A stretch of 26,231 nucleotides of DNA from a virus (IMGVR_UViG_3300011737_000031:1-26231), one strand, 5' to 3'. Shown: positions 16,535-22,935, counted from the first letter of the stretch. Numbers and translations: made by a program. Notes: generated by a model not told the origin, from the sequence alone.

Positions 16535-16963
16535 ATGAGTAAATTAACATTAAAACAACAGAAATTCGCTGATGAGTATATCATCACTGGAGTTGCTGAA
16601 ACTGCTGCATTAAAAGCAGGATATAGTAAATCTTATGCTAGAGCACGATCAAGTGAATTGTTGGCAAATATCGGCATAAAAAAATATATAGATGATCGGT
16701 TAGAAGAAATTAAATCGAAAAAGGTTGCTGATCAACAAGAGATAATGGAATTCCTCACAAGTATTGTGCGAGGAGAGCAAACAGAAGAAACGTTACGAGG
16801 TATTGGTGAAGGAGCACAAACGATTGACGATATTGAAGTTGCTGCTAAAGAACGAATTAAAGCCGCTGAGCTTCTTGGTAAACGATATGCGATGTGGACT
16901 GATAAAGTGGATCAGACGAATACGAACGTAGAAATAAACGTAGGTGAGTGGGATGACGAGTAG
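16535..16963 (+). CDS. terS: Terminase small subunit
   Basis: The N-terminus LKQQKFADEYIITGVAETAALKAGYSKSYARARSSELLAN is the typical Terminase_2-type HTH. SD AGGAGGTGA lies upstream. It overlaps the TerL start. Confidence 0.87.
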   Translation: MSKLTLKQQKFADEYIITGVAETAALKAGYSKSYARARSSELLANIGIKKYIDDRLEEIKSKKVADQQEIMEFLTSIVRGEQTEETLRGIGEGAQTIDDIEVAAKERIKAAELLGKRYAMWTDKVDQTNTNVEINVGEWDDE

Positions 16964-18200
16964 CATCGTTTTAAATTTCCCTAAGCCTAGTAAGGTCTTT
17001 AATAAGCACATTTATACACAGCTTGATGACTACGACACGTTTACAGAAGTCCATTATGGCGGTGCTTCCAGTGGGAAGAGTCATGGAGTTGTACAGAAGG
17101 TCATTCTTAAAGCTTTAAAACCTTGGAGTAAGCCTAGAAGGATGCTTTTTCTTAGAAAAGTAGCAACGACTGTGAAAGACTCCATTTTTGAGGACGTATT
17201 AGCCTGTTTAAGCTCTTTTGGAATATTAGGTAGGTGTAAGGTCAATATGAGTGATTATCGCATCACATTACCTAACAGAGCGACGCTAATTTTCAAAGGA
17301 ATGGATAACCCGGAAAAAATCAAATCGATTAAAGGTGTTTCTGATGTCATCATGGAGGAAGCAACCGAATTTACGCTTGATGACTATACGCAGTTGACTT
17401 TACGTTTAAGGGATAAAGGCCATAAACAAAAACAAATATATTTGATGTTTAACCCAGTTTCTAAAGTGAATTGGGTTTATTCGTATTTCTTTATAAATAA
17501 ACACAAGAACACAAAGATAGTACAGAGCACGTATAAGGATAATCGATTCTTGGACGAAGGAACAAAAGCAAACATCGAAGATCTAGCAAACAGGAATCCT
17601 GCCTACTATAAGATTTATGCTTTAGGTGAGTTCGCAACTCTAGATAAGTTAGTCTTTCCGAAGTACGAAAAAAGACTTCTAAATCGACAGGAATTAGTCC
17701 ATCTGCCTTCTTATTTCGGACTAGACTTTGGATATATAAATGATCCATCAGCATTTATTCACTTGAAAGTGGATGAGGCTAATAAACGAATCTACTTCAT
17801 CGAGGAGTACGTAAGGAAAGGTCTACTGAATGACCAGATTGCCCAGGCTATTGTTGACCTAGGATACTCGAAAGAAATCATTACTGCCGATTCGGCAGAG
17901 AAGAAGTCCATCGCTGAGATTAAGCAAAAAGGCGTTGCTCGAATTAGACCAGCAAAGAAAGTGCCTGATTCAGTAATTCAAGGGATTCAATTTCTATCAC
18001 AATATGAATTTATTGTGGATGAACGGTGTGTAAAGCTTATTGAGGAACTTGAAAACTATACCTGGAAGAAAGATAAGAACACCAATGAATATACAAATGT
18101 TCCAGTAGACAGCTACAACCACGTGATTGATGCGTGTAGATACGCTGTTGAAAATATAAATAACAGAATCAAAATCAAAACATTCAAAGGAGGGTTGTAA
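16953..18200 (+). CDS. terL: Terminase large subunit (PBSX/Terminase_3-like)
   Basis: Walker A YGGASSGKS, a Walker B-like DVIMEEATE, and a C-terminal nuclease region. ATG at 16953 lies 6 nt after AGGTGA (16941-16946) and is preferred to the track GTG at 16944. Confidence 0.92.
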   Translation: MTSSIVLNFPKPSKVFNKHIYTQLDDYDTFTEVHYGGASSGKSHGVVQKVILKALKPWSKPRRMLFLRKVATTVKDSIFEDVLACLSSFGILGRCKVNMSDYRITLPNRATLIFKGMDNPEKIKSIKGVSDVIMEEATEFTLDDYTQLTLRLRDKGHKQKQIYLMFNPVSKVNWVYSYFFINKHKNTKIVQSTYKDNRFLDEGTKANIEDLANRNPAYYKIYALGEFATLDKLVFPKYEKRLLNRQELVHLPSYFGLDFGYINDPSAFIHLKVDEANKRIYFIEEYVRKGLLNDQIAQAIVDLGYSKEIITADSAEKKSIAEIKQKGVARIRPAKKVPDSVIQGIQFLSQYEFIVDERCVKLIEELENYTWKKDKNTNEYTNVPVDSYNHVIDACRYAVENINNRIKIKTFKGGL

Positions 18201-19544
18201 ATGGCTATTTTTATTCATCCAGCGGAAGAAGAAATAACAGCAGAAGTGGTTAAGGAATTTATCGATTTACACGTTGCAGAATTGCCACGATATAACCGTT
18301 TAAAAGAGTTGTATGAAAGTAATGCTCCAATTCTAAGCCAAGAAGACAAGGCAGAATATAAGCCGGATAACCGTTTAGTGGTCAACTATGCAAAGTACAT
18401 TGTTGATACATTTAACGGTTATTTTATTGGGATTCCTGTTAAGGTAAGCCATGATGATGTTGGAATAAATGAGAAAGTAGACGATTTTCTTAAACGGAAT
18501 GACATGGATGATAACCAAGCTGAATTGAGTAAAATTACATCAATTTATGGCCATGGATTCGAACTTCTTTATCAAAATGAGGAAGCAGAAACCTGCAGCA
18601 CATATAATAATCCACTTGATATGTTTATCGTGTATGACGATACAATCGCTCAGAAGCCGTTATTTGCAGTTAGATATCAAACGACAGATGATGAAATGAA
18701 AGGGCAAATTTATAAAAAAGATGAAATTATCCATTTTACTAAAGGTGGAAGTGGTCTTGTATTTGGAGAAGTAGAAGTCCATTACTACGGTGATGTTCCA
18801 GTAATCGAATACATCGAAAATGAGGAAAGGCAATCCATCTTTGAATCAGTAGAATCGTTGATTAATGCTTATGATAAAGCTGTTTCAGAAAAAGCAAATG
18901 ACGTCGATTATTTTGCTGATGCTTATTTAAAAATATTGGGTGTCGAATTAGAAGAAGAAAGCCTTAAAACCATTAGAGACAATCGAATAATTAATCTATA
19001 CGGTGCTGATAACATCAAAGATATAATAGCTGAGTTCATGGAAAAGCCAAATGGAGATGCTTCTCAGGAACATTTATTAGATCGATTAGAACGACTGATT
19101 TATCAGATCAGTATGGTGGCCAATATCAACGACGAGTCATTTGGCAATGCAAGTGGGGTAGCGCTTGAATTTAAGCTGCAGCCTATGAAAAACCTTGCTG
19201 CCATGAAAGAACGCAAATTTACAAGTGGCATGAATCGTCGTTTTAAGATGTTATTTAATGTTCCTTTGTTCGTTGAGGATAGTAAAAAAGACGAGTGGAG
19301 AAACTTAAATTATAAGTTTACTAGAAACATTCCTCGTAACGTTGCGGATGAAGCAGATACAGCTGGAAAGCTCCAAGGTGTTGTATCAAAAGAAACGCAA
19401 TTAAGCGTGCTGTCCATTGTAGATAATCCTAAACAGGAAATTGAGAGAATGGATGCTGAAACAGAAGATCAAGCAAGTGATTTTAGCACAGATCAAGACG
19501 GTGACTTTGTGACAGGAGGGAATGAAAATAATGAAAGTATATAA
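18201..19544 (+). CDS. Portal protein (SPP1 gp6-like)
   Basis: 447 aa, immediately after TerL, with SD GGAGGG. It has an acidic C-terminus and the N-terminal pattern NRLVVNYAKYIVDTFNGYF typical of SPP1-type portals. Confidence 0.9.
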   Translation: MAIFIHPAEEEITAEVVKEFIDLHVAELPRYNRLKELYESNAPILSQEDKAEYKPDNRLVVNYAKYIVDTFNGYFIGIPVKVSHDDVGINEKVDDFLKRNDMDDNQAELSKITSIYGHGFELLYQNEEAETCSTYNNPLDMFIVYDDTIAQKPLFAVRYQTTDDEMKGQIYKKDEIIHFTKGGSGLVFGEVEVHYYGDVPVIEYIENEERQSIFESVESLINAYDKAVSEKANDVDYFADAYLKILGVELEEESLKTIRDNRIINLYGADNIKDIIAEFMEKPNGDASQEHLLDRLERLIYQISMVANINDESFGNASGVALEFKLQPMKNLAAMKERKFTSGMNRRFKMLFNVPLFVEDSKKDEWRNLNYKFTRNIPRNVADEADTAGKLQGVVSKETQLSVLSIVDNPKQEIERMDAETEDQASDFSTDQDGDFVTGGNENNESI

Positions 19545-19794
19545 GCATAAGAATCACAATGTTTATTCACTAACCCAAAAAATACAGTTTATGAAGATGA
19601 AAACTAAAACCATATTTTTTTATAAAGGCAAAACTATTGGCAATATCCGTTTCATAATAAAACCCCACAAACAGTGGAAATATTTCCGTTGGTTTATTAG
19701 ATTACCTTTCTTTTATTTTGAACGTACTAATGTCGCGATATTTGTTGGTACACCTAATTCTTATTTCTGGATTCATTACCGAGGCGGGCTATAA
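19522..19794 (+). CDS. Orphan small basic/aromatic protein (about 87-90 aa), low-GC insert between portal and MuF genes
   Basis: A 90-codon open frame in DNA that is only about 25-30% G+C by hand count, where stop codons should be frequent. GGAGGG lies upstream (the ATG at 19531 has better spacing). I recognise no homology. Confidence 0.45.
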   Translation: MKIMKVYKHKNHNVYSLTQKIQFMKMKTKTIFFYKGKTIGNIRFIIKPHKQWKYFRWFIRLPFFYFERTNVAIFVGTPNSYFWIHYRGGL

Positions 19795-20694
19795 ATGGAT
19801 GTTGAAAGAAAGTCCTACTGGGAACAAAGGATGGTCCAGTTATTCACTGCCCAGGATAAAAGGAATGCCAAATTTGAGAAGAAAATGAGAAAAGAATATC
19901 TTCGTGTGGAAGAACAGATAAAGAAAGAGATAGCGAGCTATTACACGAAATACGGAAAAGATGGAGTTATAGAATACCGTAAACTTGTTCAATCTTTGAC
20001 GGAAAAAGAGCGTGATTTGTTGTTTCAGGATTATGACGAGTTTGTAAGACGTAATCCTAAATACGCTCATTTAATGCCTATCAGGGAGTCGATTTATAAA
20101 CTTAACAGGTTAGAAGGTTTACAGCTTGATATCCGTATGAGAATGGTAGAGCTAGGAGCATTTGAGGAAGAAGGCTTCAGGAAATTGCTTGAAGAAGCAT
20201 ATGAAAATGGATACTTGTCATCGATGAAGGGGTTAAAAAATCCACCTTCTTTTTTTGTTGTCAATAATCTTGCAATGGAGCAGACTCTTAACGAGAAATG
20301 GATCAATGGAGGCAATTTCTCAACCCGTATTTGGGGGAATAAAGAGAGATTGCTTAACGCTTTGAATGCTGAAATTAGAGATGGCATTATTCGTGGAGAT
20401 GATTTTAGGCAGATGTCCCAAGTAATTCAGTACCGAACTGGAGTAGGTGAGAACGATGCTAAAAGGTTGCTGCAGACTGAATACAATTTCGTCATGAATC
20501 AAGCTAATAAGCAGGCATTCTTAGATGCAGGTGTAACTCGTTATGGGGTATCTGCCGTTATGGATAGAAAGACAAGTAAAACATGTAGAAGTTTAGACGG
20601 GGAACAGTTTGATTTTGATAGTGCAAGGGTTGGAGTAAATTATCCTCCATTTCACGCACGCTGCAGAACGACTGTTATTCCAGTGGAGGAGTGA
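19795..20694 (+). CDS. Head morphogenesis protein, SPP1 gp7 / Mu F family
   Basis: It follows the portal gene. The C-terminal CRSLDGEQF...NYPPFHARCRTTVIP is the Phage_Mu_F signature. Confidence 0.88.
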   Translation: MDVERKSYWEQRMVQLFTAQDKRNAKFEKKMRKEYLRVEEQIKKEIASYYTKYGKDGVIEYRKLVQSLTEKERDLLFQDYDEFVRRNPKYAHLMPIRESIYKLNRLEGLQLDIRMRMVELGAFEEEGFRKLLEEAYENGYLSSMKGLKNPPSFFVVNNLAMEQTLNEKWINGGNFSTRIWGNKERLLNALNAEIRDGIIRGDDFRQMSQVIQYRTGVGENDAKRLLQTEYNFVMNQANKQAFLDAGVTRYGVSAVMDRKTSKTCRSLDGEQFDFDSARVGVNYPPFHARCRTTVIPVEE

Positions 20695-20819: not shown

Positions 20820-20922
20820 AGTCCTATTAAAGGCTTTTTATTTTGTCCACAACCGTGCTGGTGACATTAAACTGCATGAGTATAAAAGACAACCAAGTCT
20901 ATAAAAAGTGAGGAGAATAATC

Positions 20923-21582
20923 ATGAAAGATATCATAGAAAAAGCTTGGCCCAAAGTATCACCTAGCAATCTGTTGAAATTAGATTTACAGTTTTTTGCT
21001 GATCCTGATCCAAATCCAACACCGCCAGACCCGGACCCTAATCCGGATCCAAAACCTAACCCTGATCCACCAGCACCAGGTAAAACTTATACGGAGGAAG
21101 AGCTACAGGAGATCGTAAAACAAAGAGTGGCTCGAGAGAAAAAGGCAGCAGAAAAGGCTGTAAAGGAAGCTGAGAAGCTAGCCAAGATGAATGAGGATCA
21201 GAAGAAGCAATATGAGCTGGAAAAGCTTCAGAAAGAGCTAGAAGATTACAAGAAAAAAGATGCTTTCTATTCCCTTTCCAAAGAAGCTACTAAGATGCTA
21301 GCTGAAAAGGATATAGTTGCTGATGATGAGCTTCTTTCCTTTGTCGTAAAAGAGTCTGCAGAAGACACTCAAACAGCCGTTAATACTTTTATTTCTCTTG
21401 TAGATAAAAAGGTACAGGAAGGCGTAAAAAAAGCACTATCCGGAAAAGCCCCAAAAGTGAACACAGGCCAGGGAGCGAAGAATCCGTTTAGTGAAGAACA
21501 TTTCAATTTAACAGAGCAAGGAAGACTTTTAAAAGAAAATCCAGAGCTTTATAAGAAATTAAAATCCCTAGCAGGGAAATGA
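20923..21582 (+). CDS. Scaffolding protein
   Basis: It lies directly upstream of the major capsid gene and is a highly charged, K/E-rich helical protein. The ATG at 20923 lies 7 nt after GAGGAG. It carries an N-terminal LKLDLQFFA motif and then a DP/NP repeat. Confidence 0.8.
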   Translation: MKDIIEKAWPKVSPSNLLKLDLQFFADPDPNPTPPDPDPNPDPKPNPDPPAPGKTYTEEELQEIVKQRVAREKKAAEKAVKEAEKLAKMNEDQKKQYELEKLQKELEDYKKKDAFYSLSKEATKMLAEKDIVADDELLSFVVKESAEDTQTAVNTFISLVDKKVQEGVKKALSGKAPKVNTGQGAKNPFSEEHFNLTEQGRLLKENPELYKKLKSLAGK

Positions 21583-21596
21583 AGGAGAGACATTAA

Positions 21597-22619
21597 ATGA
21601 GTAAACAACTTTTATCGCTAAACTTACAGTTTTTTGCGGAAGTGAAATTAGCAGATGTAATTCAACCGGAAGTATTTACGGAGTATGTAACGAACCGAAC
21701 TGTAGAAAAATCAGCTTTGTATCAATCTGGAATTATCGTAAATGATCCGCAATTTGATACGTTAGCAAGTGGACCGTCTAAATTAATGGATATGCCGTAC
21801 TGGAACGATTTAGCTGATACAGAAGCGACATCTGTTTCAGAAATAAAAGATTTAGAAGCACAAGGAATCACAACCGGCAGAGATGTATCTCGTAAACTTA
21901 TGCGTGCACAAATGTGGGGAGCAAATAACCTTGCAGGGGCATTATCAGGAACAGATCCGATGGCGAAGATTGCTGAATTAGTCTCCGATTATTGGATTCG
22001 TCAAGATCAACGTATTTTATTAGCAATCCTAAAAGGTTTATTCTCATCTGAATCGATGGAAAGTAATATGCTAGATATTTCAGGACTAGCTGCAGGGAAA
22101 AATGTCTTGTCTGCGGAAGCTTTCCTTGACGCTCAACAGCTATTAGGAGATAGCAAAGAATTGCTTACAGCAACGGTGATGAACTCTTATACGGAAACAT
22201 TCTTACGCAAATTGAACTTAATTGAGTATGTCCCAGTTGCAGAACAAGGGAAACCAATCCCTTATTTTATGGACAAACGAGTTATCGTGGATGATGCTGT
22301 AGCTCTTAATACTGAAACAGGAATCGGAGAAATCTTTTTGTTTGGAGAAGGAGCTATTGGTCAAGGTAATGGTTCTGATCCTAACATTGTTGCTACAGAA
22401 GTGGATCGTAACGCGAAAAATTCAGCAGGTATTGATTATCTAATCAACCGTCGTATTCAAATGTTCCATCCTCGAGGAATCAAATGGACAGAAACAGATA
22501 TCGCAGGCGAATTCCCGACGAACGCTGAATTAGGTACCGGAACAAACTGGCAACGAGTCTATGACGCTAAGAAAATTCGTATTGCTAAATTAGTGTTTGG
22601 TACAATTCCAAACGTATAA
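21597..22619 (+). CDS. Major capsid protein
   Basis: 340 aa, following the scaffold gene, with SD AAGGAGAG. It has the N-terminal LSLNLQFFA motif shared with the scaffold. Confidence 0.88.
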   Translation: MSKQLLSLNLQFFAEVKLADVIQPEVFTEYVTNRTVEKSALYQSGIIVNDPQFDTLASGPSKLMDMPYWNDLADTEATSVSEIKDLEAQGITTGRDVSRKLMRAQMWGANNLAGALSGTDPMAKIAELVSDYWIRQDQRILLAILKGLFSSESMESNMLDISGLAAGKNVLSAEAFLDAQQLLGDSKELLTATVMNSYTETFLRKLNLIEYVPVAEQGKPIPYFMDKRVIVDDAVALNTETGIGEIFLFGEGAIGQGNGSDPNIVATEVDRNAKNSAGIDYLINRRIQMFHPRGIKWTETDIAGEFPTNAELGTGTNWQRVYDAKKIRIAKLVFGTIPNV

Positions 22620-22635: not shown

Positions 22636-22935
22636 ATGCCTTATGAAACAACTAGAAATTGGACTGATGCTGAAGACAATAAGCGCTTGAACGAGGTAGG
22701 TCATCCCTATCCTCGTGAAGGTTTAGAAGTTTCCCAGGAGCGCATTGATTATTTATTAAATAAAGGCGGAGACTTTGAACGTCCATTTATTAAATTTGTA
22801 GATAAGCCAAAAGATGAAGAAGATAAAGAATTTCCGAAACACACAGGGGGAGGCTACTACGAGCTTTCGAACGGTGAGAAGGTAAAAGGTAAGGAAGCAG
22901 CTGAAAAAGCCGAAAACGAGCTAAAGGTTGATTAA
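22636..22935 (+). CDS. Hypothetical head-module protein (99 aa)
   Basis: Track ORF with SD GAGGGGATGAAGG upstream. It lies between the capsid and connector genes. Confidence 0.6.
   Translation: MPYETTRNWTDAEDNKRLNEVGHPYPREGLEVSQERIDYLLNKGGDFERPFIKFVDKPKDEEDKEFPKHTGGGYYELSNGEKVKGKEAAEKAENELKVD

Follow-up and report, generated by a model that had tools for sequence, protein, structure and literature searches.

L27-like leaders on the scaffold and major capsid proteins of a provirus with an SPP1-type capsid as probable substrates of the host protease Prp

The window analysed in this study is a stretch of 26,231 nucleotides (nt) of viral DNA (IMGVR_UViG_3300011737_000031:1-26231). It makes up the left part (26.2 kb) of an IMG/VR provirus record of 31.4 kb, which has no host DNA. 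We examined two neighbouring head genes in it, those for the scaffolding protein and the major capsid protein, each of which encodes an N-terminal leader. The scaffold gene (20923-21582, +) encodes 219 amino acids of the DUF4355/Gp46 family (PF14265, E 6.5e-28) behind the ribosome-binding site GAGGAG at 20910-20915 (+), and its product is identical to the 219-residue gene call P0121. From the ATG at 20923 it reads MKDIIEKAWPKVSPSNLLKLDLQFF|ADPDP, where the bar marks the predicted cut, and LDLQFFA is encoded at 20980-21000. The leader comprises residues 1-25 (20923-20997, +), ends in ..LLKLDLQFF and would be cut at F25/A26; the Pro/Asp-rich low-complexity linker that follows, ADPDPNPTPPDPDPNPDPKPNPDPPAPGK (20998-21084, +), is the predicted N-terminus of the mature scaffold. 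The capsid gene (21597-22619, +), with the ribosome-binding site AAGGAG at 21582-21587 (+), encodes a 340-residue protein similar to SPP1 gp13 (PF20036). Its N-terminus, from the ATG at 21597, reads MSKQLLSLNLQFF|AEVKL, with LNLQFFA encoded at 21618-21638. Residues 1-13 (21597-21635, +) form the capsid leader, with a predicted cut at F13/A14, and the P1' alanine codon (21636-21638, +) corresponds to codon 2 in leaderless relatives and to Ala2 in SPP1 gp13. The sequence agrees with the first-pass annotation, which had read the scaffold motif as ...NLLKLDLQFFA-DPDP at 20980-21000 and placed the capsid motif, followed by EVKL, at 21618-21638.

When the 31.4-kb record was translated in six frames, the strict motif L.LQFFA appeared twice, as against 0.0 times in 300 shuffles. 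A looser form of the motif within the first 50 residues was found in 2 of 102 open reading frames (ORFs), the scaffold and the capsid only. As had been pointed out earlier, the two genes also share an identical 14-nt string, TTACAGTTTTTTGC, which we found at exactly two places (20986-20999 and 21624-21637); shuffles gave a mean of 0.06 matches, with two or more matches in 0 of 100. This identity could be taken as the trace of a recent local DNA duplication, or the leaders as a chance resemblance, in either case without function. However, the leaders of scaffold and capsid are identical at only 24 of 36 nt. Given the codon usage of the phage, the probability of identical codons for the shared L-Q-F-F is about 0.05, and the capsid leader of L012, a relative with a 92% identical capsid, has CAA where the window uses CAG. 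Because of this codon match of about 0.05 and the synonymous difference in L012, the 14-mer is no sign of recent DNA duplication; it is mostly what the common peptide and the codon bias lead one to expect. A recent duplication of the leader from scaffold to capsid was thus ruled out by the overall nucleotide identity, the chance level of the 14-mer and the synonymous differences in L012. Chance is also contradicted by the shuffles, by the presence of the motif in 103 of the 120 closest scaffold homologues, and by codons that vary synonymously among relatives while the peptide is kept. These results effectively refute the explanation by chance or duplication.

Both head proteins are made with leaders that resemble the removable leader of ribosomal protein L27 in Firmicutes. 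The Prp protease of these bacteria is YsxB (MEROPS C108), and Wall et al. (2015) reportedly found that the gp46 scaffold and gp47 capsid of the staphylococcal phage 80alpha are N-terminally processed by host Prp. In this study, we found that positions P6-P1' of the phage leaders are identical to L27 sites: the scaffold site, LDLQFF|A, to that of Bacillus subtilis and B. marasmi, and the capsid site, LNLQFF|A, to that of S. aureus and staphylococci (PMC9405229). The phage leaders differ from the L27 pro-peptide in having extra upstream residues and in what follows the cut, which is ADPDP and AEVKL in the phage as against ASKKG or AHKKG in L27, and the phage substrates are virion proteins. We consider it quite likely that both leaders mimic the L27 leader and that they are cut after the double Phe by Prp, a cysteine protease of the host whose gene stands between rplU and rpmA.

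The named homologues all came from Bacillota (Bacillus, Cytobacillus, Neobacillus, Oceanobacillus, Trichococcus and others), and the Firmicute host proposed in the first-pass annotation fits all of these relatives. The window contains an IDEAL domain and SpoIIID-like and SpoVK-like genes and its scaffold has the LDLQFF leader, all of which points to a Bacillus-like host. The nearest capsids in named genomes belong to prophages of B. marasmi (83% identity) and Trichococcus palustris (82%), and in both of these hosts prp lies directly upstream of rpmA and L27 has a long, matching leader.

The relationship between phage leaders and host L27 was investigated in 401 genomes of the same class, 30 of which have DUF4355 scaffolds. 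For 18 leader-bearing (tagged) head proteins from 13 genomes, the leader shared 6.06 of 9 identities with the L27 leader of its own host and 5.31 of 9 with permuted hosts (p=0.001), and three of the four leaders from QLF hosts, but none of the 14 from QFF-type hosts, had the QLF variant with Leu at P2 (p=0.005); both statistics ignore the kinship of hosts and phages. Since the phage leader follows the host's own L27 leader, it also serves as a marker for host prediction. The host genome G186 has an unusual L27 leader, MMKLLLTLDLQFFA, and one of its prophage scaffolds reads ..PKLLLTLNIQYFA. A recent capture of the leader from host rpmA was rejected for this case, as the DNA is only 27/39 identical, which indicates mimicry and not transfer. 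G186 (L022, L045, L054, L060) also holds three different DUF4355 prophage head modules in one genome.

Over residues 16-169, leader included, the scaffold and 80alpha gp46 share 42% identity (E 3e-27), and the sole match of the scaffold among solved structures was that of 80alpha (PDB 6b0x, chain a; E 4e-23). Its last ~33 residues are 64% identical to the C-terminus of SPP1 gp11. The likeness to gp11 is limited to residues 186-217 (21478-21573, +) and does not extend along the whole length, the body being gp46-like. In scaffold homologues as well, PxDP or acidic linkers follow the motif. Judging by the 120 homologues mentioned above, the leader is the normal state of the 80alpha-gp46/DUF4355 scaffold family.

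A comparison of 39 head modules showed that the scaffold C-terminus goes with the capsid type. The scaffold end NP(F/W)..FNLTEQG..(E/D)NPE..K.L was found in 11 of 11 modules with gp13-type capsids and in neither other named capsid group, 80alpha-type capsids pair with the end ..AEIARQ.RII, and three modules with unclassified capsids (L047, L056, L065) have a partly similar NNPELY/DPELY tail. The leader is present alongside every capsid type. Because the last ~30 residues co-vary with the capsid family, this comparison suggests that the scaffold C-terminus is a candidate capsid-specific contact, as in 80alpha and P22. Cryo-electron microscopy of SPP1 instead placed the N-terminal hook of gp11 in density bound to gp13 (Ignatiou et al. 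2019, PMC6813328). By its alignments, the scaffold is assembled from exchangeable parts, namely the leader, the gp46-like body and a capsid-specific C-terminus, and the module as a whole is a mosaic of gp46-like leader and body, gp11-like tail and gp13-like capsid.

The capsid protein is 45% identical to SPP1 gp13 over its full length (E 3e-89), with A14 of the query aligned to residue 2 of gp13, and it matches PDB 4an5 and 6r3a (E about 5e-76). Against 80alpha gp47, BLASTP aligned the leader region only (E 0.012). The SPP1 gp6-type portal, the gp7/MuF minor head protein and the gp13-type capsid are all present. The head proteins had earlier been likened to those of 80alpha-type phages; this was borne out for the scaffold, a gp46 homologue, and not for the capsid, which is of the SPP1 gp13 type, a family whose capsids form without proteolysis.

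The capsid genes of the B. marasmi and T. palustris prophages begin with MAEVKLADVIQPEVF and MTVVKLTDVIQPEVF, so that they are leaderless and leave no room for a leader. In the alignment of the junction DNA, the leader stood out as a cleanly delimited in-frame block that starts after the ATG and ends before the Ala codon; its length is 36 nt in both the window and L012, as against 48 nt in L013. Without its 12-codon block the capsid of the window would read MAEVKLADV..., as in the B. marasmi relative, and a cut at F13/A14 would exactly restore the N-terminus that the B. marasmi capsid has after Met removal. The motif cores of the window and L012 capsids differ by 3 synonymous and 0 non-synonymous changes. 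As these differences are all synonymous, they indicate selection on the leader peptide.

Of the 120 highest-ranking capsid homologues, clustered at 90% identity, only five carry the leader. We built an unrooted tree of 122 capsid sequences with the leader columns left out, in which the six tagged capsids need at least four state changes across well-supported branches and each tagged tip or small group lies among untagged sequences. From this we infer several independent gains of the capsid leader, in a tree whose unrooted change counts cannot separate gain from loss. These results indicate that the capsid tag is a sporadic, precise and recent add-on to an SPP1-type capsid that can be built without it.

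All four tag states occur in gp13-type head modules. Both tags are present in L012 and L013 (capsid 86% identical; scaffold LNIQRF|A), only the scaffold tag in the B. marasmi and Trichococcus prophages, neither in L076 (capsid 87% identical), and only the capsid tag in the more distant gp13-type modules L078, L079 and L080. Further tagged and untagged proteins were observed among the relatives. The gp13-like capsid of L079 (5001-6548, P0119) has 515 residues; it carries the tag MDLQLF|G and 11 additional residues ahead of the conserved start, and its C-terminus is greatly extended. Its gene lies in what looks like a degraded prophage, on an NCBI contig of 748 kb. In G186, L060 has a tagged gp13-type capsid, MSKLLVKLDIQFF|AKTKISDVIVPE. 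Leaderless 80alpha-type capsids were seen in L071 (G374) and L073 (G284), where they begin, near the cut site of 80alpha, with MANVKPQTFNPDNVMMHE and MPTLTPQTFNPDHVMMHE and stand beside tagged scaffolds. In L068 (G214), a 95-residue ORF at 870-1157, downstream of a tagged scaffold, has the L27-like leader MMKFNLKFNLQFF|ADDSASGG and represents a further class of tagged protein.

No gene for ClpP, S78 (HK97-type), S49 or Prp was found between portal and capsid or elsewhere in the record. Six-frame searches of the 31.4 kb, tail genes covered, with PF04327 (Prp), PF04586 (S78), PF00574 (ClpP) and PF01343 (S49) gave no matches, and Pfam scans of the ORFs in the window (1-24823) revealed no prohead protease, the sole peptidase domain being the S24 domain of a repressor. 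This negative result covers about 68% of the genome, the completeness of the record by CheckV, and the missing part lies beyond the tail genes. Within that range, it confirms the claim that no ClpP/HK97-type protease gene lies between portal and capsid, and the prohead protease elsewhere in the genome that would have told against the first-pass reading was likewise absent.

The sites might instead be cut by a protease of the phage itself. An enzyme of this kind, whether related to Prp or not, could be encoded in the third of the genome that the record lacks, or the MuF-like protein could have a proteolytic activity that has escaped notice. Such a protease could be accommodated by the incompleteness of the record, and the profile phrog_595, labelled 'head maturation protease', does match the MuF-like protein. 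However, the match covers profile positions 2-297 of 513 and is confined to the MuF part; the MuF-like protein is without a protease domain, and it was rejected as a hidden protease since the PHROG label stems from the common MuF part. Besides the lack of matches in any frame, the record contains the whole head module, portal to capsid, and each of its genes is accounted for. The longer contigs of L012, L013 and L076 also yielded no protease genes. Cleavage by a phage-encoded enzyme is therefore very unlikely in our view.

The first-pass annotation had gone from the missing protease to Prp-dependent maturation, and this step is too strong, given that L076, with an 87% identical capsid, is without leaders and also without a protease. 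Because L076 is tagless and protease-free and the SPP1 head is protease-free as well, the missing gene is no evidence of Prp dependence; it is a property of the head type and no proof of reliance on Prp. SPP1 has no internal protease for scaffold degradation (PMC6813328).

If host Prp cuts both leaders as proposed, the scaffold would lose 25 residues and the capsid 13, and the mature capsid N-terminus, AEVKLADVIQPEVF..., would be that of leaderless relatives after Met removal. It would also match the start (Ala2) of the N-arm of SPP1 gp13, which threads between neighbouring subunits during expansion. The SPP1 N-arm comprises Ala2-Ala28, and its tip makes inter-capsomer contacts; in the procapsid it lies under the shell, bound to the scaffold, and later it threads a 20 Å gap (PMC6813328). 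By analogy, a hydrophobic extension of 13 residues at this arm would plausibly have to come off. The capsid and scaffold proteins of 80alpha are cut by Prp between F and A (Kizziah et al. 2017, PMC5744158), and by analogy with this phage Prp would probably act while the proteins are still soluble, before procapsids assemble or as they do so. We infer that the cleavage happens, that Prp performs it and when it takes place.

Several points weigh against the proposed cleavage by Prp, in addition to the kinship that the co-variation statistics ignore. The host comparison uses the hosts of related prophages, since the record is without host DNA. Cleavage at both sites, that of the SPP1-type capsid included, is a prediction from the sequence, and with a completeness of about 68%, the right end, which is missing, might still hold a phage protease gene. 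There are relatives, with capsids 83-87% identical, whose capsid has no leader, and in one of them the scaffold has none either. In 80alpha, a pre-cleaved or uncleavable capsid protein and an uncleavable scaffold protein all gave viable phage (PMC5744158). Because leaderless close relatives exist and uncleavable 80alpha mutants are viable, the cleavage may be dispensable. It had been stated earlier that 80alpha relies on Prp for maturation, which has to be corrected, as cleavage of its capsid and scaffold is not needed for viability (PMC5744158). The proposal that the two proteins are Prp substrates thus keeps the support of the cut sites, the gp46 homology, the lack of phage protease genes in the record and the host co-variation, and loses the need for cleavage in maturation that was ascribed to 80alpha. 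Since the scaffold tag is the family norm and the capsid tag is sporadic on a capsid that can be built without it, cleavage is probably the tidy-up of a tag with another role, such as folding, coordination or delivery, and not an obligatory trigger of maturation.

A further step would be to regard the leaders as functional N-terminal tags whose job is independent of their removal, with cleavage incidental or absent. Docking to a chaperone, use of Prp as an assembly hub, or coordination of scaffold and capsid folding are examples of such roles. Assembly of 80alpha needs an intact scaffold N-terminus and not the cleavage of scaffold or capsid, and is blocked only when the scaffold leader is removed (PMC5744158); the occurrence of all four tag combinations in gp13-type modules would also agree with this view. 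However, the site for the cut coincides exactly with the native start of the capsid protein and has been retained there, and the residues P6-P1' are those of genuine Prp substrates. Being essential and made constitutively in hosts of this kind, Prp would also cut a perfect site that is accessible. We therefore regard tags that work without cleavage as rather unlikely. It is similarly doubtful that the leader is a portable tag, gained and lost repeatedly by unrelated head families, whose real function is something other than maturation cleavage. If it were, this lineage would show such a gain in progress on an SPP1-type capsid for which proteolysis is not needed, and the tag could tie the supply or folding of the most abundant virion proteins to host Prp and ribosome assembly; Prp might serve as a hub, much like a chaperone, or might sense or drain the capacity for ribosome biogenesis.

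The tagged head proteins, abundant late in infection, might also serve as decoys that load or titrate host Prp and thereby affect the maturation of new ribosomes. The points that fit this idea are circumstantial: hundreds of tagged subunits have to be made for each capsid, Prp is essential for L27 maturation (PMC9261936), and tags were gained repeatedly on the most abundant virion proteins. Since the phage needs active translation late in infection, and since close relatives free of tags exist, a decoy function is extremely unlikely. Cleavage of both leaders by host Prp thus remains the reading that we prefer.

Prp-type leaders on phage head proteins are already known from 80alpha, and the case described here is another member of this group; in the literature searched, Prp processing of phage proteins is described for staphylococcal phages only. 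The two systems share L27-like leaders on scaffold and capsid, the F/A cut site, the absence of a prohead protease, a homologous scaffold, and the gene order TerL, portal, MuF-like minor head protein, scaffold, capsid, small Arc-like ORF and connector. They differ in that the capsid here is unlike gp47 beyond the leader, the scaffold C-terminus is of SPP1 gp11 type, and the scaffold leader has 25 residues, whereas the 80alpha proteins lose 13 and 14 (PMC5744158). The host there is Staphylococcus and here probably Bacillus-like, and the element here is known from sequence alone.

With SPP1 the element shares the capsid type, including the correspondence of the predicted P1' Ala to gp13 Ala2, the portal type, the MuF/gp7 protein, the gp11-like scaffold C-terminus and a head without an internal protease. 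In contrast to the proteins here, gp11 and gp13 of SPP1 are leaderless; the scaffold body here is gp46-like, no equivalent of gene 12 lies between scaffold and capsid, and SPP1 is lytic whereas this element is temperate, with a serine integrase at 1-1383.

What sets the present case apart is its capsid of SPP1 type, the indel located exactly at P1' and the existence of natural relatives with and without tags. In this lineage, nature supplies near-isogenic variants (capsids 82-92% identical) with both tags, the scaffold tag only or neither, and these bear on the purpose of Prp leaders, which is unsettled even for 80alpha (PMC5744158). The SPP1 capsid type works without a protease and its structure is solved; since the capsid tag sits precisely at its native N-terminus, the question of what the tag does could be tested in Bacillus subtilis/SPP1.

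The window, whose head module is that of a temperate siphophage, begins with the serine integrase gene (-), after which come the replication module and then the late operon; the G+C content is 39%. Next to the integrase gene, a Pfam scan identified a repressor remnant with an S24 self-cleavage domain (1443-1823, -), and the Peptidase_S24 domain is the whole content of this ORF. The late genes upstream of the scaffold are TerS (16535-16963), TerL (16944-18200), the SPP1-type portal gene (18201-19544, +; PF05133, E 3e-126; phrog_64) and the gene for the minor head protein of Mu F / SPP1 gp7 / 80alpha gp44 type (19795-20694, +; PF04233, E 3e-16). Connector, tail-completion and tail-tube genes lie downstream of the capsid. 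The 99-residue ORF directly after the capsid gene (22636-22935) matches PHROGs labelled 'Arc-like repressor', a doubtful label for a gene within a head module, and its position is that of 80alpha gp48. The tape-measure gene (25578 to about 28593) is broken by ten N just past the window, at 26232-26241 of the record.

Accessory genes are found in a slot formed by the gaps between portal, MuF and scaffold (19522-19794 in the window, 7943-8206 in L012, 8945-9229 in L013 and 6944-7297 in L076). In the window the slot holds an AT-rich ORF of 90 residues (19522-19794), which was rejected as a Prp-like or Tad2-like gene since it had no Pfam match and no similarity to the Tad2-like gene that L012 carries at this position. 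The slot genes of the relatives are Tad2-like (PF11195) or Acb2/Tad1-like (PF24729) anti-defence genes.

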